62,527 nt of DNA from Patescibacteria group bacterium (GTDB lineage: Bacteria; Patescibacteriota; UBA1384; JBBRAU01), in assembly GCA_038206475.1 (NCBI GenBank), contig JBBRAU010000005.1, positions 1 through 62,527 of the forward strand, written 5' to 3'. The translations under genes were made by a program, and so were the position numbers. Below the pieces are notes generated by a model. The model saw only the letters and a list, made by a program, of their open reading frames with translations, searched no databases and was not told the DNA's origin. Positions 30,639 to 43,502 of this stretch are shown piece by piece (the first letter of the stretch is position 1; every line of letters starts with the position of its first letter).

Positions 30639-32843
30639 CTAAACCCGGATGGTTAAATGACTCCCCTGCTCGTCTTTGGTCACGACAATCTCTTGGTCAA
30701 ACAGTTCTTTGAACTCGAGCAGGTGGGTGACAATAATAATCTGTTTGAACTGCGTACGCAGCTGGTTCAAAACCTGCACGACGGCGTCGCGGCCGGCTTG
30801 GTCGAGCGCGCCAAAACCTTCATCAATAATCAAAAATTCAATTTCAGCGCCGGCTCGCTCGGCCAACAGCAGCGACAGGGCGACGCGGATGGCCATATTG
30901 ATACGAAAGGCCTCGCCGCCGCTATACAGCTCGTACGGCCGCGTGCCCTCAAGGTCCGCGATAAGGATGTCCAGTGTATCGATGGTTCCCTCACCGCTCT
31001 TCTTGGCTCGCTCCGTTTCAAAGGTTAGCGTCATGGTGCCGCCGGACAGCTCGTACAGCAGCTGATTGGCCCGCTCCTCGAGCAGTGGCAGTGTTTCCTC
31101 CAATATGAGCGTTGGGATGCCGTGGCGGCTGCAAGCCTGGGCGAACTCCTCCAGCACGTGCAGCTCACTGCGTTGGCCGGTTAGCTGTTTAGTGAGCGCG
31201 GCGGCCGTTTGAGCCGAGGCTACAGCCGTCGCCAGAAGGCCTTGAATGCGGCCGAGCTCACGCTCAGTGGATCCGGTGGCGGCCTTAGCCGCGCTCAGCT
31301 CAGCGCTCAACCGCGCTTGCTCCTGCGGCGACACGCTGGCGGCGGCAAGCTCGGCACCGACGGTTTGGCGCTCGGCAGCGAGACTCTGCAGGTGCTCCGT
31401 AAGTTCTCCAAGCTCAGCGGTTAGCTGCGCTTGTTCCGTTTGCAACTCCTGCTGTTTGCCGGCGGCGCTGGCCAGCCTTTCGCGCTCAAGAACAACCGGC
31501 TGCAACTGCTCCAGCTCTGACGCCGCCGCTCGGTGCGCCGTTTCACGGTAATTCAGTGCTTGCCGCGCGTCCTCCGTCTGGCTGATTGTTTCAGTCAAGG
31601 CAGCTTCTTCGGCCGAGGGGCTGCTTAAGGCTTTGACCTGGGTAATCAGTGGGTTAATTTGCTGCAGTGTTTCGGTGCGGATAGCGTCGACGCACTGGTC
31701 GGCGGTGTGTTCGGTGCTAAACGGCCGCGTGCACAGTGGGCACTGTTTGCTGGTGCTAATCGCCGCCGCCCGTTTGCTTTGGCGCTCTTTAACACCGGCA
31801 ATTTGGCCCTTTAATGCCTCGGTCTCGGTTTGGCGCTTGCCGACCAACACCGCTAAGCGTTGGCGCAGCTCGGCTAACGTACGTTCCAGCTCACGCTGAG
31901 ATGCCGCTTTGTTTTGCCAAACTTTCTGTTCAGCCGTAAGTGTTTCAATCCGCTCAAAGCGAATTTGAACCGCCGCCTGCTGCTCAAGCAACCGTTGCAC
32001 TTCCGTCTGCTTAGCTTCAATGCCGCGCAGAGTTGCTGTGCGCTCGTCTTTCAGGCGCTGCTGGCGAGACAGCTCTCGCTCGATGTACTGCAGTTTTTGC
32101 TCAATTAAGCTGCGCTCACGGACGGCGGCCATGAGCGGTTGCAGCGCAGCTTCTAACGCTGCAGTCTGGGTGGCCTGCTCAGTGGCTGTTTGCTTCAGCG
32201 CTCTACCCTGCGTTTCAAGCTCTTCGCGCATATCTGCGCTGGTTAGTGTATCAGCCAGCCGCTGCTCGGCCAACTGCATTGCCTGCTGTTTGAAGCGGGC
32301 TTCCTCGCGCGCCCGCTCAGCCAGACGGTCAAAGCGCTCTAAATCTAAAATATCGGCCAGTACTTTTTTGCGCTCAGAGGCCGGCTTCGTCGTAAACTCA
32401 TCGGCGTGGCCTTGGCGCAGATACACTGAGTTGGTGAAGGTGGCATAGCTTAATTTGAGGCGTTCGCTGATGATTGCTTCCGTCTGGCGCAGAGAGATGC
32501 CGTTTTGCAATAGCCATTCATCGCTGTCGTGCCCGCGCGACCAAAAATCCAGCCGCGTTTTGCCGCGGTTGCCCAGTGTGCGTTGGCGCAATACTCGAAA
32601 TTCACGGCCTTGCTCTTCAAATACCAGCTCAACGGTCATGCTGGTTTCACCGCGCGAAACCAGGTCATCGTCAGATGGTGAGCGTGCCTTGCCCCAAAGC
32701 GCCCAAGTCATAGCCTCTAGGAGCGACGACTTGCCGGCACCGTTGTCGCCTGACAGCAGCACGAGCGATAGGCCGCGCAAATCAAGCTCGGTAGACTGCC
32801 GGTAGGATAAAAAATGCTCGATATTCAAATATTTAGGTATCAT
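30639..32843 (-). CDS. sbcC: SbcC/Rad50 SMC-family ATPase
   Basis: GDNGAGKSS, coiled coil with CPLC zinc hook, YSGGE, IDEGFGALD, VTH. Confidence 0.92.
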   Translation of the reverse strand: MIPKYLNIEHFLSYRQSTELDLRGLSLVLLSGDNGAGKSSLLEAMTWALWGKARSPSDDDLVSRGETSMTVELVFEEQGREFRVLRQRTLGNRGKTRLDFWSRGHDSDEWLLQNGISLRQTEAIISERLKLSYATFTNSVYLRQGHADEFTTKPASERKKVLADILDLERFDRLAERAREEARFKQQAMQLAEQRLADTLTSADMREELETQGRALKQTATEQATQTAALEAALQPLMAAVRERSLIEQKLQYIERELSRQQRLKDERTATLRGIEAKQTEVQRLLEQQAAVQIRFERIETLTAEQKVWQNKAASQRELERTLAELRQRLAVLVGKRQTETEALKGQIAGVKERQSKRAAAISTSKQCPLCTRPFSTEHTADQCVDAIRTETLQQINPLITQVKALSSPSAEEAALTETISQTEDARQALNYRETAHRAAASELEQLQPVVLERERLASAAGKQQELQTEQAQLTAELGELTEHLQSLAAERQTVGAELAAASVSPQEQARLSAELSAAKAATGSTERELGRIQGLLATAVASAQTAAALTKQLTGQRSELHVLEEFAQACSRHGIPTLILEETLPLLEERANQLLYELSGGTMTLTFETERAKKSGEGTIDTLDILIADLEGTRPYELYSGGEAFRINMAIRVALSLLLAERAGAEIEFLIIDEGFGALDQAGRDAVVQVLNQLRTQFKQIIIVTHLLEFKELFDQEIVVTKDEQGSHLTIRV

Positions 32844-32874: not shown

Positions 32875-34134
32875 TCATACTTTGTCATTTTGCCACTCTG
32901 CGTATAACTTTTGCATGCCAGCGACCTCAGTTTTACTCTTTCCGCGACGTTCACCGTACAACTGTATCAACTCTTGGTCGGTGCGCTCCTTTAATTCGCG
33001 ACTGCGTTTTCCGGCCGCCTCCGGCCGGTGCAGATCCCAGACAATGCCGGCGGCAAAGTAGGCTTCGCGCAGCTTTTGCCGCACTTGCCGCTCATCAGTC
33101 AGTTTCCGCACCTCTGGCGTGGCCTCAATCACTAAACGGACAACTTTGTCCTCCAGCGGCTCGATGGCTAAGCGTTTGAGCACGGTGTCGGTTGGGTTCG
33201 GGTCGCTTGGCTGCACGGCCACTTGAATAGACTTAAGCAGTCGAACCGTCAGCGGCTTAAACTGGTAGCCGACCGATAGCACGCCAGCAGTTTGCAATGC
33301 CTCTGGAGCATGCTGCCGCAGTTTTGACTCGCCTATTGAGATGAGTACAACCCCCTTTTCGTCCTGCCACTCCGACCAGTCAATGTAGTTGGGCGAGCCG
33401 GCATACACAACCGGCGGCTGTTCATTGACTACCTGGTAGCGATGGATGTGGCCCACCGCCGTGTAGAGCAATGGCTTGGCCGTAAACCAGGTTTTGGGCA
33501 GTGGCAAATCGCTGCCGCGGAATATGGACGTTTCGCCCTGGTAGGCGGCGCCTTCGATGGCACCGTGTACGAGGGCCACGGTCGGCGCCTTCGTTTTTGT
33601 GGCATCATCCAACAGTTGATGCCACACCTGGCCCATATCCTCGAGTAACTTTGCTTCTACTTGGTCGGGCGGCAAAGGTTGTTCCAGCCGGCCGAGGTAG
33701 AGCGACGGGTTCACCCACGGCAACGTTACCACCTGCAGCAATCCGCTCTTGGTCTCAAGTTTCAGCAACTCTGGCTGGCGGGAAACGGTTAAGCCGGTAA
33801 TTTCCAGCGCGCCAAACACGTCGAGCGCATTGGCTCGGCCTTCAGCGTTCGGCACGTCGTGATTGCCTACCAACAATACGGTCGGCAGGCCGGCTTTGGT
33901 TAAGCGGCGCAGCCGTTTGGCGAACTCGCGCTCAACCGTCGGGGTCGGGTCGCGCGTTTTGTAGGCATCACCGGCAAACAGCACAGCGTCTACATGCTCT
34001 GAAATAGCCAAGTCAACAATTTGGTCCAGCGAAGCCAAAAAATCGCGCAGCCGACTGTGAATGCCGCTGGCCGGATCTAGCCGCCCAAAATTCTCCATTC
34101 CTAAGTGGAGGTCGGAAAATTGCAGAATCTTCAT
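32875..34134 (-). CDS. sbcD: SbcD/Mre11 nuclease
   Basis: SDLHLG, FAGD, GNHD, GHIH, YAGS motifs; adjacent to sbcC. Confidence 0.92.
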   Translation of the reverse strand: MKILQFSDLHLGMENFGRLDPASGIHSRLRDFLASLDQIVDLAISEHVDAVLFAGDAYKTRDPTPTVEREFAKRLRRLTKAGLPTVLLVGNHDVPNAEGRANALDVFGALEITGLTVSRQPELLKLETKSGLLQVVTLPWVNPSLYLGRLEQPLPPDQVEAKLLEDMGQVWHQLLDDATKTKAPTVALVHGAIEGAAYQGETSIFRGSDLPLPKTWFTAKPLLYTAVGHIHRYQVVNEQPPVVYAGSPNYIDWSEWQDEKGVVLISIGESKLRQHAPEALQTAGVLSVGYQFKPLTVRLLKSIQVAVQPSDPNPTDTVLKRLAIEPLEDKVVRLVIEATPEVRKLTDERQVRQKLREAYFAAGIVWDLHRPEAAGKRSRELKERTDQELIQLYGERRGKSKTEVAGMQKLYAEWQNDKV

Positions 34135-34164
34135 GATACTCCAAAAACGTATCAATTTTTGGGG

Positions 34165-34295: not shown

Positions 34296-34372
34296 CTCGG
34301 CTGGTCGTACCGCACCGAGCAAATGAGCAAAAAAACCGGCGTGAGGCCGGCTTTTGTCTTGCGCCGAAGAGA

Positions 34373-34720
34373 CTAATTCAGGCCGAGGGTTTTTTGTAAT
34401 TGGGCTTTGGTTGAGGCGCCGGAGTGTTGGGCGATAATTTTACTGTCTTGAAAAACCACCAAGGTTGGAATGGCTAAAATAGAGTATTGCTGCGAGATGT
34501 TTGGATTTTGGTCAACGTCGACTTTGACAAAGGTGTGGCTGGCTTTTAAATCCTCGGCTAGCTCCTCAAAAATGGGTGCCATCACTTGGCAAGGCGCACA
34601 CCAGGTAGCCCAAAAATCGACGACGACCGGCTTTTCGCTTTTGGCTAAGTTGTCGGCAAAGTCGGCATCGGTCCAATGCTCAACTATTTCCTCAGGATTA
34701 CTGCTGGCGGCATCTGGCAT
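34373..34720 (-). CDS. trxA: Thioredoxin
   Basis: VDFWATWCAPC active site; IPTL cis-Pro loop. Confidence 0.92.
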   Translation of the reverse strand: MPDAASSNPEEIVEHWTDADFADNLAKSEKPVVVDFWATWCAPCQVMAPIFEELAEDLKASHTFVKVDVDQNPNISQQYSILAIPTLVVFQDSKIIAQHSGASTKAQLQKTLGLN

Positions 34721-34728
34721 GGTTCTCC

Positions 34729-35307
34729 TTACTTGCCCGCGGCGTTCAGGTGAACGCTGTCGGGGCGGTTGCTGCTTGCCGTGGCCGGCCAGGCTGGACG
34801 GGCCGACGCGAGTTTTGGCTTGTTCAACGTAAGGCGGGCCAGGACAAATAGGCTGAGGGTGGTGGCCAGGTCAGACAGGACGGTTGGGCCAAAGAAGGGC
34901 AGGGCGGCCACGTAGCTAGCCAGTTGGCCAGCCAGCGTGTGCTGGTAGAGGCCGTGGCCAACCGTCAGCCAAACGCTGTTAGTCAGCAGGAAAAACAGCG
35001 AACTGGCGCCCAAGCTGGCGCCGCCAATAAGCAAAAAGTTAGCTTGGCGTCTGATAGTCGTGCCGAGCAGCCAAATGAAGCCAAAACTGAGGTAAACGGC
35101 CAGCAGTTGACCGTGCCAAAACGGCTGGTGACGTGTGGCAGTCAGCAGATAATCAGAGATGAGCATACTGCCGAGCGGCACCGTCCAACTGGTACGTCTC
35201 GGCAGCGCGGCACCGGCAAATAGGCTCAAGCCGCCGATGGCCGTAAAATTCGGCCAATGCGGGATAAGCCGAGTGAAAACACCCAAAATGATGAGTAGAA
35301 TCGTCAT
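34729..35307 (-). CDS. DUF6580-like membrane transporter (ECF S-component-like; B12 uptake candidate)
   Basis: RLIPHWPNFTAIG...LFAGA...SD...FFLLTN...YVAALPFF pattern; last gene of the riboswitch operon. Confidence 0.75.
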   Translation of the reverse strand: MTILLIILGVFTRLIPHWPNFTAIGGLSLFAGAALPRRTSWTVPLGSMLISDYLLTATRHQPFWHGQLLAVYLSFGFIWLLGTTIRRQANFLLIGGASLGASSLFFLLTNSVWLTVGHGLYQHTLAGQLASYVAALPFFGPTVLSDLATTLSLFVLARLTLNKPKLASARPAWPATASSNRPDSVHLNAAGK

Positions 35308-35419
35308 TGATACACCTTTCTCAGTACATCTGAATTGCCTCAATCAGACAAGACTGTGAAAACGGAATATTTATTGTTTGGTGTCTGTTCGTGCCTACAG
35401 CGAGCGACAGAGAGAATGT

Positions 35420-35443
35420 CTCGGCCGGGATATCCCGGCCGAG
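35420..35443. repeat. Perfect 24-bp palindrome
   Basis: CTCGGCCGGGATATCCCGGCCGAG. Confidence 0.8.
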
Positions 35444-35466
35444 GTGGTAGTAGCGCGGAGCAGCGA

Positions 35467-36054
35467 CTAATCCCAGGTCTGAAGCACCAGGGTATCGCCG
35501 AGAGCAATCGTCGAGCTGGCGATGCTGGCTTGGCCGCCGAGCACCAGTTTTCCGTTCTTCAGAAACCGCCAATACTGCGTGCCATCTGCTCCGATGATCG
35601 TCGTTTGGCCACCTAAGGTAATCGACAACCGGTCCAGGAAGCGACTGCCGCCACTACCGTGGGCAGTGTAATCGACGAACCTCCGGAGAGTCTGCAGGAG
35701 AGCTTCGACCGATGCGGTTTGCGCTTGAATGAATTCGGCATGCAACAGGACGGTTGGGTTGACCTGGTTGGTGAGAATATTGAGCGTGGTGCCGTTTGCT
35801 TTAGCATCCAACCCCACACTCTGTCGTAGCAGTTTGACCGCGTCGGCGATGTCGAGGTTGCCGGTTTGATCGAGAATGGCCTCCGAGGTCAAGGGTGAGA
35901 CGCCAACCACCTGTTTGAGATAAAGTACCGCATCGCTGATGTTGACGACTCCGTCATTGCTCAGGTCACCGACAACCGCCAAGGCGCGTTGCCAGGGCAG
36001 AAGCAGGGCTGCGGTCGTGCCGGTCAGCACGCTGCGCCGAGACAGTGTATTCAA
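35467..36054 (-). CDS. Twin-arginine-like signal, type I dockerin domain and DUF4430-like domain
   Basis: LSRRSVL signal; GDLSNDGVVNISDAV and DQTGNLDIADAV duplicated Ca-binding loops; YWRFLKNG...GD C-terminus. Confidence 0.7.
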   Translation of the reverse strand: MNTLSRRSVLTGTTAALLLPWQRALAVVGDLSNDGVVNISDAVLYLKQVVGVSPLTSEAILDQTGNLDIADAVKLLRQSVGLDAKANGTTLNILTNQVNPTVLLHAEFIQAQTASVEALLQTLRRFVDYTAHGSGGSRFLDRLSITLGGQTTIIGADGTQYWRFLKNGKLVLGGQASIASSTIALGDTLVLQTWD

Positions 36055-36133
36055 AGAGCAAACTCCCCTTTCTTGCCGCTGCGGGCAGTGAACGGCCAGC
36101 GATTGACCGCTCAGTCACCAGCAGCGACGCCTA

Positions 36134-37684
36134 CTACCAACGCTTAGGCCGTGCCGCCCGTGTAAAACTCCAAAGTAAACCACTGCCGGCCAAAATAGCC
36201 ACGATTAACAATGCGATCCTGGTGCGATTTGGTTGGCTGCTTGGTTGGACAAAAGCCGCGGAGGGGGCGTTGGTGACGGCTTGATTGACCGCGGTCGGTG
36301 CCGAAAAAACCACAGGCTGATCTTGGTATCTGGCCAGTAAAGGCTGGACATACGGGGTGCGAGAGCTGGCTGAAACAGGTGTTTCAGACACGTTATCCGC
36401 TGATGACGAAGTATGAAAACTGGACAAAACTGCGGCATTATTGTCGTAAGAATAAATAGTATGGCTGGCCGCGGCCGCTGCGACTGCAGTTTTGGCAGGC
36501 GTTTTACCGGGTATCATCACCAAGCTTTGTCCCGATAAGGCCATCAGAGCATAGGCGTTAGTGAGCGGGCTGGCGCTGTCCTCGCCGCCGCCCGGATTAT
36601 ATTCGACGTGGCCGCTGGGCAAAATGCGGGCGCTGAGCCAGCTCACCGGGTCAGACTGGCGTTGCCAATCCGCTGGGTTCTCACCTATCGCAATAATGGC
36701 TTGGACCACCCAGGCCGTCGAGGCGCTGTCAGAGTCATCGCCCGGCTGATACGGGAAGCCGCCATCGACATTCTGGGCCGTTTTGAGAAAGGTGCGGGCG
36801 CGGCTAATGACGCTCCCCTGTTTTGGCGTGTCTGGCATGGTGGTCAAGGCTTGAATTACCGCCGAGGTGGTATTGGTTTCGCTTGGGTCGGTGGTGTTCC
36901 AGGAGAAGCCGCCGTCGGCGTGCTGCGTACTGGCCAAGTGGTCGGCGGTAGTAGTGACCGCCGGATTGCTGGCTGGCGTGCCGGTGTCGCGCAAACTGAG
37001 CACAGCAAACGCATCGTCATTGATTGCCGCTGAGTTACTGACGCTGCCGCCAGGCTGGCTGGCTAGTTTAATAGCCTGCTGGCGCGCCTGCGAGGCGGGT
37101 GTCGTGGCTTGATTGGTTGCGGCGTCGACCAACAATTGTCGCTCCTGATCGGTGACGGTATCGCTTGGGCTGGTTTGACCGCGCCGGTTGGCGTCATGCG
37201 TAGCGATGGCCGTCCAGTCTTGCTCGCTGGGACTTGAGGGTCTCCCATCGGAAGCTTCGCTTCCACTTTGTTCCCTGGCAGTTGATGCAGCGGCGGGCAA
37301 AGTGGAGGCAACTGTCGCCGGCGTTTGGTTGGCCGACAGGCTCGTCGCGGGAGGCGGGGCAACCACGGCCACCGTTATTGTGACTGGGCCGTCCGGTGTT
37401 GTCGCGCTCAGCGTATAGCTGCCAACCGGCCGCGTGCCAAACTCGACCGAACCGTCAGCAGACGTTAGCTGGCTGGTGCCGCCTAGGCTGACCGGCACGT
37501 TGGCCTCTGGTCGTAGGTCCCCCGTGGTCGGCGTGGCCAGCACGACAGTGGCCGCAATCGGTTCAGTCGGCAAGTATTGGTAGTGTGTGGGCAGAATAGC
37601 CACAGAGTTGCCGGCGGCGTCGGTGGTGGTGGCAAACGACAGCCAAGCGGCCGCGGCCAGGGTGAGGAGCAATACTTTTTTCAC
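36134..37684 (-). CDS. Exported prenyltransferase/squalene-cyclase-repeat (alpha6/alpha6 barrel) protein with a C-terminal TM anchor
   Basis: LASTQHADGGF and LKTAQNVDGGF repeats, DSDSASTAWVVQAI; signal peptide; GTGA overlap with the upstream stop. Confidence 0.8.
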   Translation of the reverse strand: MKKVLLLTLAAAAWLSFATTTDAAGNSVAILPTHYQYLPTEPIAATVVLATPTTGDLRPEANVPVSLGGTSQLTSADGSVEFGTRPVGSYTLSATTPDGPVTITVAVVAPPPATSLSANQTPATVASTLPAAASTAREQSGSEASDGRPSSPSEQDWTAIATHDANRRGQTSPSDTVTDQERQLLVDAATNQATTPASQARQQAIKLASQPGGSVSNSAAINDDAFAVLSLRDTGTPASNPAVTTTADHLASTQHADGGFSWNTTDPSETNTTSAVIQALTTMPDTPKQGSVISRARTFLKTAQNVDGGFPYQPGDDSDSASTAWVVQAIIAIGENPADWQRQSDPVSWLSARILPSGHVEYNPGGGEDSASPLTNAYALMALSGQSLVMIPGKTPAKTAVAAAAASHTIYSYDNNAAVLSSFHTSSSADNVSETPVSASSRTPYVQPLLARYQDQPVVFSAPTAVNQAVTNAPSAAFVQPSSQPNRTRIALLIVAILAGSGLLWSFTRAARPKRW

Positions 37685-38301
37685 GAGGAAGGTTCCAATT
37701 GCCAATCAATCTGATCGCCGTTATGTACCGTTGCACTGCCAGCGCCGCGGGTGGCAAAGGCGCCGTTCAGGCGCAGCAGCCAGTAGCGGCCCCCGTCACC
37801 ATTGGCCTGGCCGTTCAGGCTGGTGACAAGGACGCCCAAACTGCTCGTCTCAATGGTCATGCTAATTTGGCCGCTTTGCTGCAGTTGTTTCAGAGCATCA
37901 TAAACACTGCTGCCGGTCGGCAGGTTAAGCTGGTAGGTTTGGCTGCCGATGTGCAGGCTTGCTTGGATCGTCTCAGGCGTGGAGGTGATTGGTGCAGTAG
38001 TATTTTGCCTGGCTACGCTCGTTTGATTAGGTGCGGAGACCGCACCTGGGGCCGCTACAACGGCGATTTTCGGCCGGCTGTGTTCTGGAGCGCTACTGGC
38101 TATAGATGCGGCGACAGGCTGTTGTGGAGCCGCGGAGGTGACGCTGGCGGGCATGGCGGATGCAGTTGGTTCCGCGCTGACGCTGGACGGGGCAGCTGGA
38201 TATGTTTGGCTGTCGGCCCGCGGTGGCAAATAGGCGTAGCCAAACAGGCTGGCCGCCAGTGCCAGAGCTAACATCACCCGAGTTGCCTGCAATTTCGTCA
38301 T
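37681..38301 (-). CDS. DUF4430 (transcobalamin C-terminal beta-domain-like) exported protein
   Basis: SVYDALK...LGVLVTSLNG...YWLLRLNG...GA...GDQIDW pattern. Confidence 0.85.
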   Translation of the reverse strand: MTKLQATRVMLALALAASLFGYAYLPPRADSQTYPAAPSSVSAEPTASAMPASVTSAAPQQPVAASIASSAPEHSRPKIAVVAAPGAVSAPNQTSVARQNTTAPITSTPETIQASLHIGSQTYQLNLPTGSSVYDALKQLQQSGQISMTIETSSLGVLVTSLNGQANGDGGRYWLLRLNGAFATRGAGSATVHNGDQIDWQLEPSS

Positions 38302-38303
38302 TC

Positions 38304-38331
38304 AAAAAAATCCCGGCCAAGCTGCCAGGAA
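38304..38331 (-). terminator. Riboswitch expression-platform terminator directly before the start codon
   Basis: Minus strand TCCTGGC-AGCTTG-GCCGGGA-TTTTTTT-GA-ATG. Confidence 0.75.
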
Positions 38332-38384
38332 TATCAAAAAGTCCCTTGCTGCTCGGCAAATTACGGAACAGCGTACTGTTCCTG

Positions 38385-38565
38385 GCGGCTTGGTTTTCCG
38401 GCTAAATACTCATCAGGTATGGCCTCAGAGGCCTCGGCAAAAGCTTGCTTCTGTAGAGTATTTTTACGGTTGCGGCACAGCGGTCGATTCACGCGACACT
38501 TCCCAGAGACAATAGCTCCCATTTAGACGCGTCGTCGAAATGAGTAGTCTCTATGGGCCACCATC
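38385..38565 (-). ncRNA. Cobalamin riboswitch
   Basis: Minus strand GGT...GGGAAGT-GTCG-CGTGAAT-CGAC-CGCTGTGCCGCAACCGTAA...AGCCGGAAAACC, matching the conserved core and B12 box, upstream of DUF4430 genes. Confidence 0.85.
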
Positions 38566-38707
38566 AGATTGTTCCCTTCCAATGTGGCAAATCAACAGAG
38601 ACTGTCAATGCTACCGTGGTTGACAAAAGTGTGATACGACGTTACCTTGGTATGGTGCTGTGCCTCAATCACGAGACCGGCTTGCTCTTTACTAAAGGAG
38701 ATCGAAT

Positions 38708-39361
38708 TTGCCATATAAGCCCCGATTCGACGTCATGGTGGTTGGACCAGTTGGTTGCGGCAAAAGCACCTTGGCGCAATCTCTGGCCGAGGTGCTCCCG
38801 GCGCCCTGCTGCGTGCTGGACTGCAGCGCCACCCTAAAAACCGAGGCGACGCCTGAGGAACAGGCGGACATGCGTGCTGGTAACCTGCTCTCGAATGAGC
38901 GCGCCAACGAAATATTCTGCCAAAGCTGGCGCGAGGCGCTTGCGGCCACGCGGTCGTTGGTGCTCACCGGTTTCCCGCGCTCGTTGGAGCAGGGCCGCGA
39001 TGCGCACTGCTGCTGTCTGGAGCCGACTCACCTGTTTCATCTGGCCATCCCGCCTGAGGTTTGCTTGGAGCGGCTGTCTGGTCGGTTAACCTGCCAAAGC
39101 TGTGCGGCCGTGACCAATGTCGCCGTGGCGGCGACACACTGTCCCCGGTGCGGCGGTATGCTCAGCCAGCGCCCGGATGATGCGCCAGAGATCATTCGCA
39201 AACGGCTTGAGCTGGCGGTGGGCGTCGACGGCCAGGGCGGCTACGTCGCTGAAGTCGTCGAGTTCTACCAGAAGCAAACCGAAGTGGCGATCTGCATAAT
39301 TGACCGCCCGCTATCAGAAAGCGACTTGCTGGCGCGAGTTCGCTCCTGGCTCGACCTGTAA
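38708..39361 (+). CDS. Divergent adenylate kinase-family nucleoside monophosphate kinase
   Basis: GPVGCGKST, GFPRS, zinc LID CQSC...CPRCGG, QRPDD; SD AAGGAG; own promoter and terminator. Confidence 0.8.
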   Translation: MPYKPRFDVMVVGPVGCGKSTLAQSLAEVLPAPCCVLDCSATLKTEATPEEQADMRAGNLLSNERANEIFCQSWREALAATRSLVLTGFPRSLEQGRDAHCCCLEPTHLFHLAIPPEVCLERLSGRLTCQSCAAVTNVAVAATHCPRCGGMLSQRPDDAPEIIRKRLELAVGVDGQGGYVAEVVEFYQKQTEVAICIIDRPLSESDLLARVRSWLDL

Positions 39362-39398
39362 CCCCCTCCCCCGCGGTCTCCGCGGGGTTTTTTTGACC

Positions 39399-39612
39399 AA
39401 AAAAAAGGTGCCTTGTGGCACTCTCCTTAATTAATGAAAGGCTTAGCTCATCTGGCATAAGAACTGCTCATGCGGAGCAGAACCTTTTGCCATCGAAGCA
39501 AAAAGAAAACGGCCTTGCGGCCGCCTCCTTATGTATTATTGAGGCTTCAGCTTCGGTGGCATAAACACCTTGTCTGATCTCTCAACCTCGGGGAATTATC
39601 TCCCCTACACAT
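39399..39612 (-). ncRNA. Tandem two-unit small-RNA candidate
   Basis: Two ~100 nt units: AGGTT-N19/20-TTATGCCA-N4-AGCT(G)AAGCCT-AT-rich-TAAGGAG-N3-GCCRCAAGGC-U tract; extended -10 TGTTAGACT upstream. Confidence 0.55.
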
Positions 39613-39692
39613 ATTAGTCTAACATATCCCCGGATGCTGTGAATAAGAGACCAAAAAAATCCCCACCGCGATGTATTGCGGTGGGGAAGGGT

Positions 39693-40082
39693 CTACTGGC
39701 GGGCCTTTATAGCTTCGCCGAGACGCTGGCGCGCCTCAGCGAGCTTCTTCGCCGCATTAGGCAGCGGCGAAGTGGAGCCCTCAAGGCACTCCCGGGCCAT
39801 CCGGGAGCTCGATGGGCCGTACGCGGCCCGTTGCCAGCTTTCCTCTGAGAGCCGGAGGGCCCTCAGATTCAGCTTTGCCGTTTCGACCGCGTCTCGCGCG
39901 GTCTCAACGGCGTCCCCCGCCAGGGGGAAGGAGGTGGGGAGGGGTACCAGCTGGTACCCCTCCAACTTGGCCACGAGGAGAGCAATGCTCTCACTCATGA
40001 CCGTTTCGGTGAGGCTGGCGCCGGTGTTGGCGGCGTGAATCCGCCAACACCCCCCACCGCACTCCTGGGTATAGACTTTCAT
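39693..40082 (-). CDS. Orphan helical hypothetical protein
   Basis: SD AAGGGG; own promoter, leader and terminator. Confidence 0.6.
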   Translation of the reverse strand: MKVYTQECGGGCWRIHAANTGASLTETVMSESIALLVAKLEGYQLVPLPTSFPLAGDAVETARDAVETAKLNLRALRLSEESWQRAAYGPSSSRMARECLEGSTSPLPNAAKKLAEARQRLGEAIKARQ

Positions 40083-40352
40083 GGCGATTCCCCTTTAGCC
40101 ATTGCTCGGCAGACGGTGGCAGCAGGATGCTGCACAGCGTCTAGCGCCAAGCATGGCAATGCCGTATGGCATGGGTGGTTCCGGCGAGGACCGGAGCTCT
40201 GTGAAAGCAGCATACGAGGTACTGTGTGACAGCCATATTAAATTGGCCTGTCAGAAAATGTTGTGAACGAGTACCCCAGATGCTGCTTTCATTAAATTGT
40301 TCAAATTCAATCTTGCTGCTTACAGTATAGCAAATAATACAAAGATTGTCAA
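40083..40352 (-). promoter_or_regulatory. Near-consensus sigma70 promoter with a ~235 nt structured leader
   Basis: TTGACA-17-TATACT with extended TG; stems GAAAGCAGCAT/ATGCTGCTTTC, TGACAG/CTGTCA, GCTTGGC/GCCGAGC. Confidence 0.7.
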
Positions 40353-40561
40353 GCACCACACGCCTAATTAGGCGTGAATAGGGTAGATAAAACCAGCAGT
40401 TTACAGCCCGAAAGCCTTCATCCTGCTGGCACTGTGAGCATACATCAATTACCACACAAAAACAGGCGCCGAAGCGCCTGTTTTCGCTTGTTTTATCCTA
40501 TCTGCTGAGCGAGGTGCTGGCTTTGCCAGGCGCCATAGCGCCTGCTTTATATTACAGATCC

Positions 40562-40680
40562 ATCGAGAAACTGTGCAGCTTTACTGTCAGTTTCGAGCAC
40601 TGAACGGAAAGGGTGACAGCGAGTGAAGCGAGTGTCCTGAGGGGAAACCGCTGCGCAAGCCGGGGTTTCCCCTAGGAGGG
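40562..40680. repeat. REP-like palindromic element just after the nrdJ stop
   Basis: GCGAGTGAAGCGAGTG direct repeat and AGGGGAAACC/GGTTTCCCCT stem. Confidence 0.4.
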
Positions 40681-40682
40681 CT

Positions 40683-43502
40683 TTAGCCGCACTTCGAGTA
40701 GCCGCAGTCGCTGCAGGTGGGGCAGCCAGACTGCAGGACGTAGTTGGCGCTGGAGCACATTGGGCAGAGGCCGAGGTCGCCGGCGACAAAACTGGAGGTG
40801 TGTTTTTTGCCGACCGGGGCGGTCATGAGTATCGGGTTGCTTGGTGCGGCTACCACAGCGGCGTCTGGTGCAAACAGCGACTCCGTGGCGCTAACCTCGG
40901 CTGCCGCAATCGGTGCCTCATTGCTGGCAACTGAATCAGCCGCTTCAGCCGTTGACGTCTGTGCCGTCAGGGGGGATCCGGAGCTGGTCGCCAGGCCAAG
41001 TGAATTTTTGCGGTCAATGTAGCGCTCAAGCGTTTTGGCAATGGCGTCGGGCACGGACAGAATCAGCTCGCCATTTTGCCAAACCGGCGAGCTGCCGCGA
41101 ATGCCTTTTAAGTGCTTGATGATGGTTTTGACTTCGATGCCGCTCCGTAGGCTAACCGAGATCAAACGGCCGATGGCTTCAGTCAGCGAGGTTGTTTCAT
41201 TACCGGATTTGCCGATCGAAGCAAACACCTCAAACGGTCCGTGGCCATCTTCGTTAATTGTGACGAACATTTTACCCATGCCGGTGTTAATCTCTTCGGT
41301 CGTGCCGGCAATGACGGCTGGCCGCGGCCGCGGTTTAATCCTGAACTCCTCTTGGGCCTCTTGGATCGAGCGTACGCTTTGCGAGTCTGATAAAGCCGGC
41401 CCCAGCATGACGGCCGCTGGCGGCTCACCTTGCCCACTAGCGGCTGAGCCGAGAGTAGGGCCCTTGCTGGTTTTGCCGTCACACGGCACCGAAACGTTTG
41501 AATCATTATTAACCGCTTTGTTCTCGTCGACTTTCTCCAGGTTCAGCACCTGAACGTCGCGGCTCTTGTCGCGGTAGATCGTGCCGCCCTTGCAGCCCAA
41601 ATCATACATCTTCTCGTACAGCTCGCGTGTTTGCTCGATAGTGTAGCTCTCGGGCGTGTTGCAGGTTTTGGAAATGGCCGAGTCTACCCAGCGTTGGATA
41701 TCGGCTTGCACCTGCACATGCTCACTGGGCGCCAGGTCCATGGCGGTGACAAAGTAGTCAGGCAGCGTTTTGCCGACGTTCTGCTTTTGCCAGTCTTCAA
41801 CCAGTTTAATTTTTTCTTCATGCGTACCCAAGCGAGAGGTACGGAAGTAGGTCCAGGAATAAAACGGCTCAATGCCGGTTGAGGTGCCGACCATAGTGCC
41901 GATCGTGCCATTTGGCGCCTGGGTCAGCAGTGTGACGTTTCTAACGCCTTTTTCGCGGACCAGCTGGCGAATCTCTTTTGGCATGGCCTGCATGTAGCCG
42001 GACTCTAAGAATTTGTCGGCTTCAAATTGCGGGAAGGCACCCTTCTCCTCTGCCAGCTCAGCCGAGGTTTGGTAGGCTACACCGGAGATAAAGCGGTACA
42101 AGCGGTCAATGAAGGCCGACGAGTCCTCTGAGCCGTAGCGGATACCCAGCTGAATCATCATCTCGGCCAGGCCCATGGTGTTTAAGCCGACACGCCGCTC
42201 GCCCTTTTGCTGATTCTCATTTTCTTCAAAGAAGTAGGGTGTCCAATCAATGACATTATCCAAGAAGCGCACAGCGTAGCTGACGGCCTGGCGCAGCTTT
42301 TCCCAAGCCACGTCGTGGGCGGCTTCGTCGATAAATTTAGATAAGTTAATGGCACCGAGGTTGCAAACGCCCCAGGCCGGCAGCGGTTGCTCGCCACACG
42401 GATTGGTGCAGGTCAAAGGCGCAAAGTACCAGGAGTTAGACATTTTGTTGGAGCGCTCAATAAAGTACAGCCCTGGCTCAGCCGACGCCCAGGCCGACTC
42501 AATTAAGGTATCCCACAGCTCTTTAGCCCGAACCGTTTTGTAGACTTTGGTTGCTTTGCCCTTGGCCCGCCAAGCGTCTAAGTTGCCATCCCAAAGTTCG
42601 TTGTACTGAGGGTCGTCCATGTCAGGGAAGACTAAATCCCAGTCTTTATCGGCTTTGACGGCAGCCATAAAGTCGTCGGTGACGCCGATGGAAATATTGG
42701 CGTTAGTGATTTTGCCGGCTTCACGCTTGGAGTTAATGAACTCAAAGATGTCTGGGTGCCAGACATTCAAAATAAGCATCAGAGCGCCGCGCCGGCTGCC
42801 GCCTTGCTCAATTAAGCCGGTTGAGAAGCTGTACAGCGAGCCCCAAGACACTGCGCCCGAGGAGCGGCCGTTGACTCCTTTGACGTAAGCGTAGCGGGGG
42901 CGCAGCGAGGAGAGGTTAATGCCGACGCCGCCGCCGCGGGAGAAAATTTCGTTCATCTGCGACAGCGTCTGCAAAATGCCGCCGCGCGAATCGTGTGGGC
43001 TAGGGATAACGTAGCAGTTGTAGCAGGTCAACTTTTGGCTGGAGCCGGCGGTGGTTAAAATACGGCCAGCCGGCACAAACTTGTAGCCGTCCAGTAGCCA
43101 GCGGAAGTTGTTTTCCCAGGTCGTTTGGCCTTCTGGTGTGGCTTCTACGCTCGCGATACCGCGAGCAACTCTAGCCATCATTTCGACCGGCTTCGTTTCG
43201 ACTGGCACGTCAATGTGCTCAAGCAGACGCTCGATAATAGTGCCGTCACGCAGCTCAACCGTGATATTCTCACCGAGGTGTTGGGCAACCAGGCCAATTT
43301 CTCGTCGGCCGGTTTTGGTGTCTGTGCAGACGACCACCGTGTCCCCTACCTTGAGGCTCTTTTTGGTACCGTCCTTTAAGGCGTAGCGATCAAGAAAAAT
43401 CTTCTCGCCGATTGACGACAGCGAGTTATCGCCGGAAAAAATATACTCCGGCTCCGTGGCTTTGTTTACGGCGGCTATTTTGGTGCGCGCGGTTCGTGGC
43501 AT
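40683..43502 (-). CDS. nrdJ: Adenosylcobalamin-dependent (class II) ribonucleotide reductase with C-terminal TSCPD domain and zinc ribbon
   Basis: FVPAGRIL, NCYV, GGGVG, TNPCGEQ, CNLG, APNGTI, SAISKT, GCKGGTIYRD; C-terminal CPMC...CSDCGYSKC; no small-subunit gene in the window. Confidence 0.93.
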   Translation of the reverse strand: MPRTARTKIAAVNKATEPEYIFSGDNSLSSIGEKIFLDRYALKDGTKKSLKVGDTVVVCTDTKTGRREIGLVAQHLGENITVELRDGTIIERLLEHIDVPVETKPVEMMARVARGIASVEATPEGQTTWENNFRWLLDGYKFVPAGRILTTAGSSQKLTCYNCYVIPSPHDSRGGILQTLSQMNEIFSRGGGVGINLSSLRPRYAYVKGVNGRSSGAVSWGSLYSFSTGLIEQGGSRRGALMLILNVWHPDIFEFINSKREAGKITNANISIGVTDDFMAAVKADKDWDLVFPDMDDPQYNELWDGNLDAWRAKGKATKVYKTVRAKELWDTLIESAWASAEPGLYFIERSNKMSNSWYFAPLTCTNPCGEQPLPAWGVCNLGAINLSKFIDEAAHDVAWEKLRQAVSYAVRFLDNVIDWTPYFFEENENQQKGERRVGLNTMGLAEMMIQLGIRYGSEDSSAFIDRLYRFISGVAYQTSAELAEEKGAFPQFEADKFLESGYMQAMPKEIRQLVREKGVRNVTLLTQAPNGTIGTMVGTSTGIEPFYSWTYFRTSRLGTHEEKIKLVEDWQKQNVGKTLPDYFVTAMDLAPSEHVQVQADIQRWVDSAISKTCNTPESYTIEQTRELYEKMYDLGCKGGTIYRDKSRDVQVLNLEKVDENKAVNNDSNVSVPCDGKTSKGPTLGSAASGQGEPPAAVMLGPALSDSQSVRSIQEAQEEFRIKPRPRPAVIAGTTEEINTGMGKMFVTINEDGHGPFEVFASIGKSGNETTSLTEAIGRLISVSLRSGIEVKTIIKHLKGIRGSSPVWQNGELILSVPDAIAKTLERYIDRKNSLGLATSSGSPLTAQTSTAEAADSVASNEAPIAAAEVSATESLFAPDAAVVAAPSNPILMTAPVGKKHTSSFVAGDLGLCPMCSSANYVLQSGCPTCSDCGYSKCG

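Follow-up and report, generated by a model that had tools for sequence, protein, structure and literature searches.

We found that a 62,527-nucleotide contig of a Patescibacteria group bacterium (JBBRAU010000005.1, assembly GCA_038206475.1), which at its full length we call the window, carries five minus-strand genes in a row behind a cobalamin riboswitch and a terminator. They encode, in order, a DUF4430 protein (g1; DUF stands for domain of unknown function), an alpha/alpha toroid protein (g2), an orphan secreted protein (g3), a DUF6580 membrane protein (g4) and a thioredoxin (g5). The locus is real and related to vitamin B12, a reading that is strongly supported by comparison with other genomes, and we put at about 0.7 the probability that it is a B12 salvage locus composed of the riboswitch, surface capture, import by DUF6580 without an energy-coupling factor (ECF) module, the adenosyltransferase CobA and the ribonucleotide reductase NrdJ. 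The locus is best filed under the solitary-S-component type of B12 uptake.

A scan of the window with Rfam at gathering thresholds returned no match. At E-value thresholds, positions 45-169 of the 189 in the cobalamin riboswitch model RF00174 aligned to 38391-38505 of the minus strand, scoring 18.1 bits where the cut-off is 31.5. A B12-box-like stretch falls inside this match, which is the sole one in the host genome (E = 0.006, 25 candidates scored), an assembly of 730,669 bases that is 97.4% complete. Furthermore, a covariance model (R1) made from the riboswitches of 23 relatives that exceed the Rfam cut-off, with the window sequence left out, found one place in the 62.5 kb, at 38371-38529 of the minus strand, with 34.6 bits (E about 9e-7) against 9.4 bits for the runner-up. 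Because R1 gives this single match far above its runner-up, the window element is, as judged by alignment, a diverged member of a clade-wide riboswitch in syntenic position. An earlier reading of the letters of this DNA (hereafter the sequence-only reading) had claimed a cobalamin riboswitch that model scans should recover: the riboswitch is present in divergent form, and the scans were negative at the gathering threshold and positive with RF00174 at E-value thresholds and with R1.

That reading had also placed a terminator past the riboswitch, and we indeed found a 7-pair hairpin (38330-38311, minus strand) followed by a run of seven Ts that ends 3 nt ahead of the ATG at 38301. The 5′ arm of this terminator hairpin is paired, in the minimum-free-energy fold, with bases immediately 3′ of the B12 box, which would amount to the usual anti-terminator logic; we infer this logic rather than observe it because the fold of the whole riboswitch region is not exceptional (z-score of only -1.48).

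Next we examined a class sample of 61 genomes, made up of the window's own and 60 relatives, together with 14 control genomes. DUF6580 is present in 38 of the 61 class genomes and in none of the controls. RF00174 matches at E ≤ 0.1 occur in 33 of the 60 relatives, 23 of them above the cut-off, and 28 relatives hold both DUF6580 and a riboswitch match. In 18 of these 28, DUF6580 has the riboswitch 0.2-3 kb upstream on its own strand, and in the remaining 10 the riboswitch precedes DUF4430 and/or toroid genes elsewhere. The 18 riboswitch-DUF6580 operons have a DUF4430 gene in 17 cases, 16 times between the riboswitch and DUF6580 (often overlapping DUF6580) and once after it; a thioredoxin gene stands directly 3′ of DUF6580 in 12 and is absent there in 6, nrdJ falls within the fetched flank at 12, and a toroid gene is part of the operon in one.

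The co-occurrence extends to the genes that would process and use the cofactor, although the class genomes are kin, so that the following counts are not independent and overstate independence: CobA is found in 26 of 38 DUF6580-positive genomes vs 2 of 23 DUF6580-negative ones, and NrdJ above its cut-off in 34 of 38 vs 8 of 23 (37 of 38 vs 15 of 23 at E ≤ 1e-10). The sequence-only reading had named co-occurrence with nrdJ as a check on its proposal. The cobA gene lies at most 3.7 kb from DUF6580 in 22 of the 25 relatives with both, and DUF4430 is found in 35 of the 61 genomes, all 35 of them DUF6580-positive. CbiQ/EcfT was found in 0 of 61 class genomes vs 11 of 14 controls.

The protein at the centre of this arrangement, g4, matches DUF6580 (PF20221) with 128.7 bits against a cut-off of 27. 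At E ≤ 1e-10 the family counts no fewer than 1,887 cluster representatives, and public records call its protein "hypothetical" or "DUF6580 family putative transport protein". We built a model from 19 clade sequences (six helices, mean predicted local distance difference test score (pLDDT) 80.6) and aligned it to 48,161 representative PDB chains using VIA-align. The top match is BtuM with hydroxycobalamin (8ovv_A; Z 14.1, root-mean-square deviation 3.3, 164 of 175 residues), followed by BioY at Z 11.2 and then FolT, RibU and others, such that ranks 1-15 are all ECF S-components (Z 8.1-14.1). With Foldseek, no PDB chain reached E ≤ 0.001; its top rows are S-components with E above 0.2 throughout, and the fold assignment therefore rests on VIA-align. 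By this model, DUF6580 is predicted to have the ECF S-component fold, with BtuM as its best match. The earlier claim of a solitary S-component fits this result because neither the own genome nor the 60 relatives yielded an ECF module.

At the sequence level, profiles of 19 (A1) and 52 (A7) DUF6580 sequences each matched one PDB chain, 6fnp_A, a 182-residue "Membrane protein" of the ECF-CbrT entry 6FNP that by its length and name is presumably CbrT. The matches (E = 0.0054 with A1 and 0.019 with A7) cover transmembrane helices 1-3 (TM1-3) only, with the motif R..PN..P aligned. Across phyla, R25, N32, D64, N122, Y133, G139 and F150 are invariant among the 52 sequences, and H29 is kept in 50 of them; Cys is frequent in a single column, where 34 of the 52 sequences have it and the window protein has Ser. 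The AxxxA motif in TM1 is the EcfT docking motif of S-components, and an AxxxA within 20 residues before the invariant Arg is seen in 3 of the 52 aligned DUF6580 proteins.

We then asked what else in the genome handles B12. Neither a FecCD (BtuC-type) nor a CbiQ/EcfT gene was found in the whole genome, EcfA not having been searched separately, and no PduO-type adenosyltransferase, PF02310 B12-binding domain, CobS or QueG was found. A CobA-type adenosyltransferase gene is present on contig C3 (70186-70746), where its neighbours have no Pfam matches. The nrdJ product scores 581 bits with TIGR02504 against a cut-off of 399.95, and among the families searched NrdJ alone turned up as a B12 client. 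This supports the earlier view that B12 is scavenged for dNTP synthesis, with the locus belonging to the B12 regulon. On this gene content, the cell would be able to adenosylate imported cobalamin and, because no CobS was found, unable to complete cobinamide by the known route.

NrdJ, at 939 residues, combines an extended low-complexity insert with a TSCPD domain and, at its C-terminal end, a tail that carries two CxxC pairs. A Cys-rich NrdJ tail suggests a thioredoxin-type reductant. The g5 product is a thioredoxin (TIGR01068, 113.7 bits against 96.8) with the active site WCAPC; the gene starts 8 nt past the g4 stop with a GGAG of its own and is the sole strong thioredoxin in the genome. A link between thioredoxin and NrdJ is plausible from these features. 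In several relatives the NrdJ frame reaches 1,080-1,230 residues and contains the family match in two parts, which points to insertions, inteins for example.

To see how far the association reaches, we turned to a pattern scan of species-representative genomes with an 8-sequence alignment (A6), which gave at least 577 confirmed DUF6580 relatives, and examined the best 80 loci. By record title these are Patescibacteria lineages (38), Omnitrophota (11), Bacteroidota (8), Ignavibacteriota (8) and Planctomycetales (3), the rest being metagenome-assembled genomes (MAGs) labelled Gammaproteobacteria (10) or unlabelled (2). R1 gave 54 matches within 5 kb in 48 of the 80 loci, spread over five or more phyla, with 53 of the 54 on the strand of the gene. 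The riboswitch is upstream only in 26 loci, 0-0.7 kb downstream only in 18, on both sides in 4 and without a match in 32, although some riboswitches of distant phyla probably escape the clade model. The downstream form is found in all 14 Omnitrophota and Planctomycetales loci and also in some Bacteroidota records, where the riboswitch begins 0-230 bases beyond the DUF6580 stop. When ten proteins from seven loci were scanned, the downstream riboswitch was followed by a TonB-dependent receptor gene at L125, L145, L115 and L127, with a DUF5074 protein after the receptor at L127; the other five proteins were one flavin adenine dinucleotide (FAD) oxidoreductase and four without matches. Riboswitches on both sides of DUF6580 were seen at three Bacteroidota loci and in one MAG labelled Gammaproteobacteria.

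Next we considered the putative capture proteins. g1 matches DUF4430 (PF14478) with 46.5 bits against a cut-off of 23.8, and its PDB matches are the C-terminal domains of haptocorrin and transcobalamin (4kki_A, E = 5.7e-4; 2bb6_A, E = 8.9e-3). It consists of an N-terminal hydrophobic anchor, a low-complexity linker and the C-terminal DUF4430 domain, a layout shared in an alignment by 26 relatives. The GTG start of g2 overlaps the TGA stop of g1 as GTGA, and its product has a signal-like N-terminus, a beta-rich stretch, the alpha/alpha toroid and a C-terminal hydrophobic segment as membrane anchor. Its Pfam matches include Prenyltrans (29.2 bits) and SQHop_cyclase, with no Cobalamin_bind match among them. 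The toroid model (pLDDT 84.2) has terpene cyclases as its best structural matches (Z about 20), with intrinsic factor at Z 17.7 (rank 5), transcobalamin at Z 17.2 (rank 14) and haptocorrin at Z 15.9; many other toroids reach Z 15-17, and Foldseek ranks cyclases and prenyltransferases first. Because terpene cyclases score about 20 and many toroids 15-17, the modelled fold of g2 by itself is a fold-class match in which B12 carriers are not singled out.

The tie of g2 to B12 is instead made, as its homologues indicate, by DUF4430 fusions rather than by fold. Among 53 close toroid homologues (48 single-stretch matches among the best 150 of 3,073 at E ≤ 0.001 in a representative library, four from relatives and the window's own), 25 carry DUF4430 on the same chain. 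A function of g2 as a terpene cyclase or prenyltransferase enzyme was considered and rejected, given that the protein is predicted to be extracellular and anchored, has DUF4430-fused homologues and lies behind a B12 riboswitch. In two further proteins, P0004 and P0005, an S-component/DUF6580-like membrane domain is fused to a toroid: these proteins, of 665 and 689 residues, have an N-terminal six-helix domain, an extracellular toroid and a C-terminal anchor, and the helix domain has weak matches to DUF6580, ECF-ribofla_trS and ECF_trnsprt.

Most gene calls of the sequence-only reading hold: the DUF4430 protein, the anchored barrel protein coupled to it, the DUF6580-like and thioredoxin genes, nrdJ nearby (2.4 kb upstream) and the absence of BtuFCD and ECF genes, which we now extend to the whole 97.4% complete genome for FecCD and CbiQ/EcfT. 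Its two-chain clamp fares less evenly. The word "split" is apt because 25 of 53 close toroid homologues are DUF4430-fused, and toroid and beta domain are here encoded by the separate genes g2 and g1 and not on one polypeptide, but the pair is not a conserved core, the toroid occurring in 1 and DUF4430 in 17 of the 18 operons. The toroid is thus an optional part, and the sequence-only reading, though right in outline, overstated its role.

The call that we were unable to confirm is g3 as a dockerin-DUF4430 protein. It has no Pfam match at E up to 0.1 and no NCBIfam match; phmmer against PDB dockerin chains gave weak matches (E 0.01-1.7, residues 23-77), the clade DUF4430 hidden Markov model gave 9.6 bits on one short motif (YW..NG..GD, like the end of DUF4430), and hhalign against DUF4430 gave a probability of 6.7% over 32 columns. 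No homologue of 107-342 residues was found among 5.8 billion clusters, longer or shorter forms not having been searched, and the protein atlas gave no usable match. A jackhmmer search over the fetched loci returned one match, a PolB-type exonuclease, which we judged spurious. The signal of g3 contains an SRR motif; export by the Tat route was nevertheless rejected, no TatC having been found in the genome.

These observations suggest a route for the cofactor. When B12 is scarce, the riboswitch would let transcription run into g1, and the anchored DUF4430 protein and the toroid would be displayed on the cell surface. Cobalamin might be caught by DUF4430 alone, or gripped between it and the toroid in the manner of the two transcobalamin domains, and then be handed to DUF6580, which would bind the corrinoid and, like BtuM, bring it through the membrane in the absence of an ECF ATPase module. 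The CobA-type adenosyltransferase would make adenosylcobalamin for NrdJ, adenosylation may also trap the cofactor inside, and the co-transcribed thioredoxin most likely re-reduces NrdJ. More tentatively, DUF6580 could be a third, widespread B12-specific S-component-type family without an ECF module, fed by membrane-anchored DUF4430 proteins, with or without a toroid, in ultra-small monoderms and partnered by a riboswitch-controlled BtuB-like receptor in diderms, with thioredoxin perhaps replacing the cysteine chemistry of BtuM; it would then be an S-component transporter with extracytoplasmic substrate-capture partners, and we regard this wider proposal as possible, with the odds somewhat against it.

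A B12 role of DUF6580, if true, would supply the uptake step when the metabolism of host-dependent, ultra-small bacteria is reconstructed, in which the making of DNA precursors would hang on a borrowed cofactor. It would also provide a second, sequence-unrelated solitary S-component carrier of B12 for the study of ATPase-free transport. B12 import is a directly testable candidate function for this widespread DUF, as Escherichia coli complementation was already applied to BtuM and ECF-CbrT.

Known systems share parts of this architecture. The abstract of the BtuM paper states that the membrane proteins of B12 uptake are unidentified for most B12-dependent prokaryotes; in the text available, BtuM is a solitary S-component that needs Cys80, decyanates in a thiol-dependent manner and works without an ECF module in its hosts, and solitary BioY is likewise reported to transport without a module (PMC6072759). 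BtuM of Thiobacillus denitrificans (PDB 8OVV, 8C7P) is the best structural match to the DUF6580 model, both proteins occur in organisms without an ECF module, as described for BtuM (PMC6072759, same text) and as our search of the 61 class genomes indicates for DUF6580, and BtuM stands beside btuB as DUF6580 of diderms stands beside a riboswitch-controlled TonB receptor. In contrast to these likenesses, there is no detectable sequence similarity between the two, DUF6580 has no invariant counterpart of Cys80 and is accompanied by DUF4430 capture proteins, and Proteobacteria are the main reported hosts of BtuM homologues, whereas we found DUF6580 in Patescibacteria, Omnitrophota, Bacteroidota, Ignavibacteriota and Planctomycetales records.

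For Lactobacillus delbrueckii, the sections consulted describe a cluster nrdJ-cbrS-cbrT-pduO and an ECF-CbrT transporter that also takes cobinamide (PMC5997447). That cluster follows the logic of our locus in joining NrdJ with an adenosyltransferase and a small component of a transporter (PMC5997447), except that the adenosyltransferase is PduO-type there and CobA-type here. ECF-CbrT (PDB 6FNP) is also the sole PDB sequence match of the DUF6580 profiles, with the R..PN..P motif in TM1 and loop 1; however, CbrT needs the EcfAA'T module, and EcfT is found in 0 of 61 genomes here. In L. sakei, the accessible part of a 2019 preprint presents Lsa1836-1840 as an ECF transporter with the secreted transcobalamin alpha-like Lsa1840 and beta-like Lsa1839, and proposes a hand-off from the pair to the S-component, for heme (10.1101/864751). 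As in our window, the toroid and the beta-domain protein are two genes beside an S-component; unlike there, where the ECF module is full, heme is proposed and that part of the preprint mentions no riboswitch (10.1101/864751), the window has no ECF module found, a cobalamin riboswitch in front, and nrdJ and cobA as clade neighbours.

Animal transcobalamin, intrinsic factor and haptocorrin offer a domain parallel, g1 aligning with their C-terminal domain and the g2 model superposing on the alpha domain, but here the domains are on two membrane-anchored chains, and terpene cyclases give the g2 model scores that are at least as high. In bacteria, Burroughs, Balaji, Iyer and Aravind (2007) predicted, in the portion of the article at hand, that secreted or anchored SLBB proteins, often fused to toroids, scavenge B12, often with a second paralogue in the operon and in B12 non-producers (PMC1796856). 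Those proteins are tied to CbiO/CbiQ-type (ECF) genes of Gram-positives (PMC1796856, same portion), whereas here DUF6580 occurs without an ECF module in very small genomes.

Among the titles listed for DUF4430, our searches found none on bacterial B12 transport, and they found no paper joining cobalamin, riboswitch and Patescibacteria. No published B12 role of DUF6580 was found either; Rodionov et al. 2009 and paper supplements might list one. The predictions of CbrT and BtuM reportedly go back to that study. Assigning a B12 role to DUF6580 seems to be novel. This does not hold for the split transcobalamin-like clamp, in print since 2007 and 2019, and the sequence-only reading overstated its novelty in view of the split alpha/beta proteins beside an S-component (10.1101/864751) and the predicted scavenging by SLBB domains with toroids (PMC1796856), as far as the consulted parts of both texts go.

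Several observations weigh against B12 salvage through DUF6580 as proposed above. The window riboswitch is itself below the Rfam cut-off (18.1 against 31.5 bits), 10 of the 38 DUF6580-positive class genomes have no riboswitch match (nine relatives and the own genome, under stricter filters), and the kinship of the class genomes inflates the co-occurrence counts. Among the best 80 loci, 32 DUF6580 loci lack a riboswitch match, and in 18 of the 48 riboswitch-associated ones the riboswitch comes after DUF6580 and not before it. Within the window, the hairpin between g3 and g4 (described below) may uncouple DUF6580 and thioredoxin from the riboswitch or damp the read-through to them. A Z of 14 is near the warning level of the tool for helical proteins, yet exceeds that of the next family by 3 units. 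The similarity in sequence to CbrT is marginal (E 0.005-0.02, TM1-3 only), and no BtuM chain was among the PDB matches of A1 or A7 at E up to 10. BtuM's essential Cys80 has no counterpart, and no Cys is invariant in the 52 DUF6580 sequences. Finally, repressing the main thioredoxin when B12 is plentiful would be odd if that thioredoxin serves NrdJ alone.

Other explanations draw on these same points. A chance riboswitch match in front of a surface and membrane gene row unrelated to B12 would agree with the Rfam score under the cut-off and with the ordinary folding energy of the region (z -1.48), but the clade model scores 34.6 bits in syntenic position and has no other real match in 62.5 kb, 23 relatives are above the cut-off, 28 matches stand in front of the same gene families, and the DUF4430 domain of g1 matches transcobalamin beta domains directly; this explanation is close to refuted. 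A different cargo for the same architecture, such as heme, cobinamide or another cobamide in place of complete cobalamin, is considerably easier to entertain, and still improbable in our view. The riboswitch that controls the genes here and in relatives is a cobalamin riboswitch, the conserved neighbours are cobA and nrdJ, cobinamide would not be completed by the known route since no CobS was found, and no heme-related gene was noticed in the operon. Set against this are the heme proposed for the split alpha/beta ECF operon of L. sakei in the preprint text available (10.1101/864751), the cobinamide that ECF-CbrT is reported to take as well (PMC5997447), and the lack in DUF6580 of the cobalt-binding Cys of BtuM.

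DUF6580 may also be related to B12 without being the translocator, acting as a receptor, as an anchor for DUF4430 or as a B12-processing protein while another protein transports. Transport is pointed to by fold and gene context alone, solitary S-component transport has no known energy source, and in 18 of 80 loci DUF6580 is upstream of the riboswitch and so not under it. We nevertheless think this unlikely: the 15 best structural matches are without exception substrate-translocating S-components, the 97.4% complete genome yielded neither a FecCD nor an EcfT gene, the DUF6580 of diderms sits beside a riboswitch-controlled TonB receptor, in the place of an inner-membrane B12 transporter, and the consulted text reports transport without a module for BtuM and solitary BioY (PMC6072759). 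Much the same low probability applies to a role of thioredoxin in B12 handling, in which it would act on imported cob(III)alamin, by reduction or release, to supply CobA instead of, or besides, serving NrdJ. The gene directly follows DUF6580 in 12 of 18 operons, and in the window by 8 nt; co-repression by B12 suits an uptake role better than an NrdJ role; and DUF6580 lacks the Cys with which BtuM is reported to decyanate thiol-dependently (PMC6072759, in part). However, 6 of the 18 operons lack a thioredoxin gene, and g5 is an ordinary thioredoxin, the sole strong one of the genome, so probably housekeeping. The Cys-rich tail of NrdJ likewise favours a thioredoxin-type reductant for that enzyme.

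The features of the locus are listed in Table 1.

Table 1. Coordinates of the B12 locus in the window, in the order of minus-strand transcription
Feature	Position	Strand	Basis or remark
nrdJ	40683-43502	-	2.4 kb upstream of the gene row; TIGR02504, Pfam; TSCPD domain, Cys-rich tail
Adenylate-kinase-like gene	38708-39361	+	divergent, between nrdJ and riboswitch
Cobalamin riboswitch aptamer, divergent	38371-38529	-	weak RF00174 match and clade covariance model R1
Expression platform: anti-terminator stretch, then terminator hairpin and T7	38304-38393	-	terminator scan and minimum-free-energy fold; inferred
g1, membrane-anchored DUF4430 protein (transcobalamin beta-domain-like SLBB), 206 residues	37681-38301	-	PF14478
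g2, surface alpha/alpha toroid protein, C-terminal membrane anchor	36134-37705, likely GTG start 37684	-	Pfam Prenyltrans, SQHop_cyclase
g3, orphan secreted protein, 195 residues	35467-36054	-	no family match; weak dockerin-like repeats, C-terminal YW..NG..GD motif
Perfect 10-pair GC hairpin without U tract	35418-35441	-	between g3 and g4; fold
g4, DUF6580, six-helix membrane protein of predicted S-component fold	34729-35343	-	PF20221; proposed solitary B12 transporter
g5, thioredoxin (WCAPC)	34373-34720	-	TIGR01068
Canonical intrinsic terminator, GC stem and U7	34329-34353	-	closes the gene row; fold; palindrome also scored on the plus strand

The first canonical terminator of the row, with a U7 run, comes only after thioredoxin (34353-34329, minus strand). 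Before it, 36 nt past the g3 stop, the perfect 10-pair GC hairpin at 35418-35441 lacks the U tract that is present in both the riboswitch terminator and the post-thioredoxin terminator, and the g3/g4 gap folds at -36.3 kcal/mol (z -2.89). This hairpin is possibly a partial terminator or an RNA-stability element. Genome-wide we counted 46 perfect hairpins with a 10-pair stem and a 4-nt loop, 38 of them intergenic though about 88% of the genome is coding; most lie 20-60 nt beyond gene ends and are maybe the organism's usual 3′-end signal.

On the plus strand, the adenylate-kinase-like product of 38708-39361 has a Cys-rich lid, and 22 relatives carry cobA near DUF6580 in that place. Past thioredoxin follow a Metallophos (SbcD-like) gene (32875-34155, minus strand) and a gene for 734 residues (30639-32843, minus strand); relatives have the same size order there (about 400 and then about 1,000 residues), so that the neighbourhood is kept beyond the B12 genes.

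The operons of the relatives vary in their DUF4430 and toroid parts. At L037:6457-6957 and L040:3337-3837 an additional DUF4430 gene sits immediately 5′ of the riboswitch and is not under its control, and G029 has two tandem DUF4430 genes behind the riboswitch. One relative, G005, has the gene order of the window, with a toroid-DUF6580 gap of 162 bases in which, read by eye, an apparent short frame (L046:8511-8600, minus strand) encodes a hydrophobic peptide of about 26 residues. L046 and L056 have a small lipoprotein-like gene (149 and 155 residues, no Pfam match) after DUF4430.

Elsewhere in the class, cobalamin riboswitch matches stand in front of other reductases. Weaker matches in G018 (L065:2782-5766) and G020 (L066:134-3173) precede an anaerobic class III reductase NrdD (667 bits) with a radical S-adenosylmethionine (radical-SAM) activase, and in G043 (L064:1975-4755) a match precedes an ATP-cone ribonucleotide reductase below the NrdJ cut-off. 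From their gene order, these three cases look like repression of B12-independent reductases by B12.

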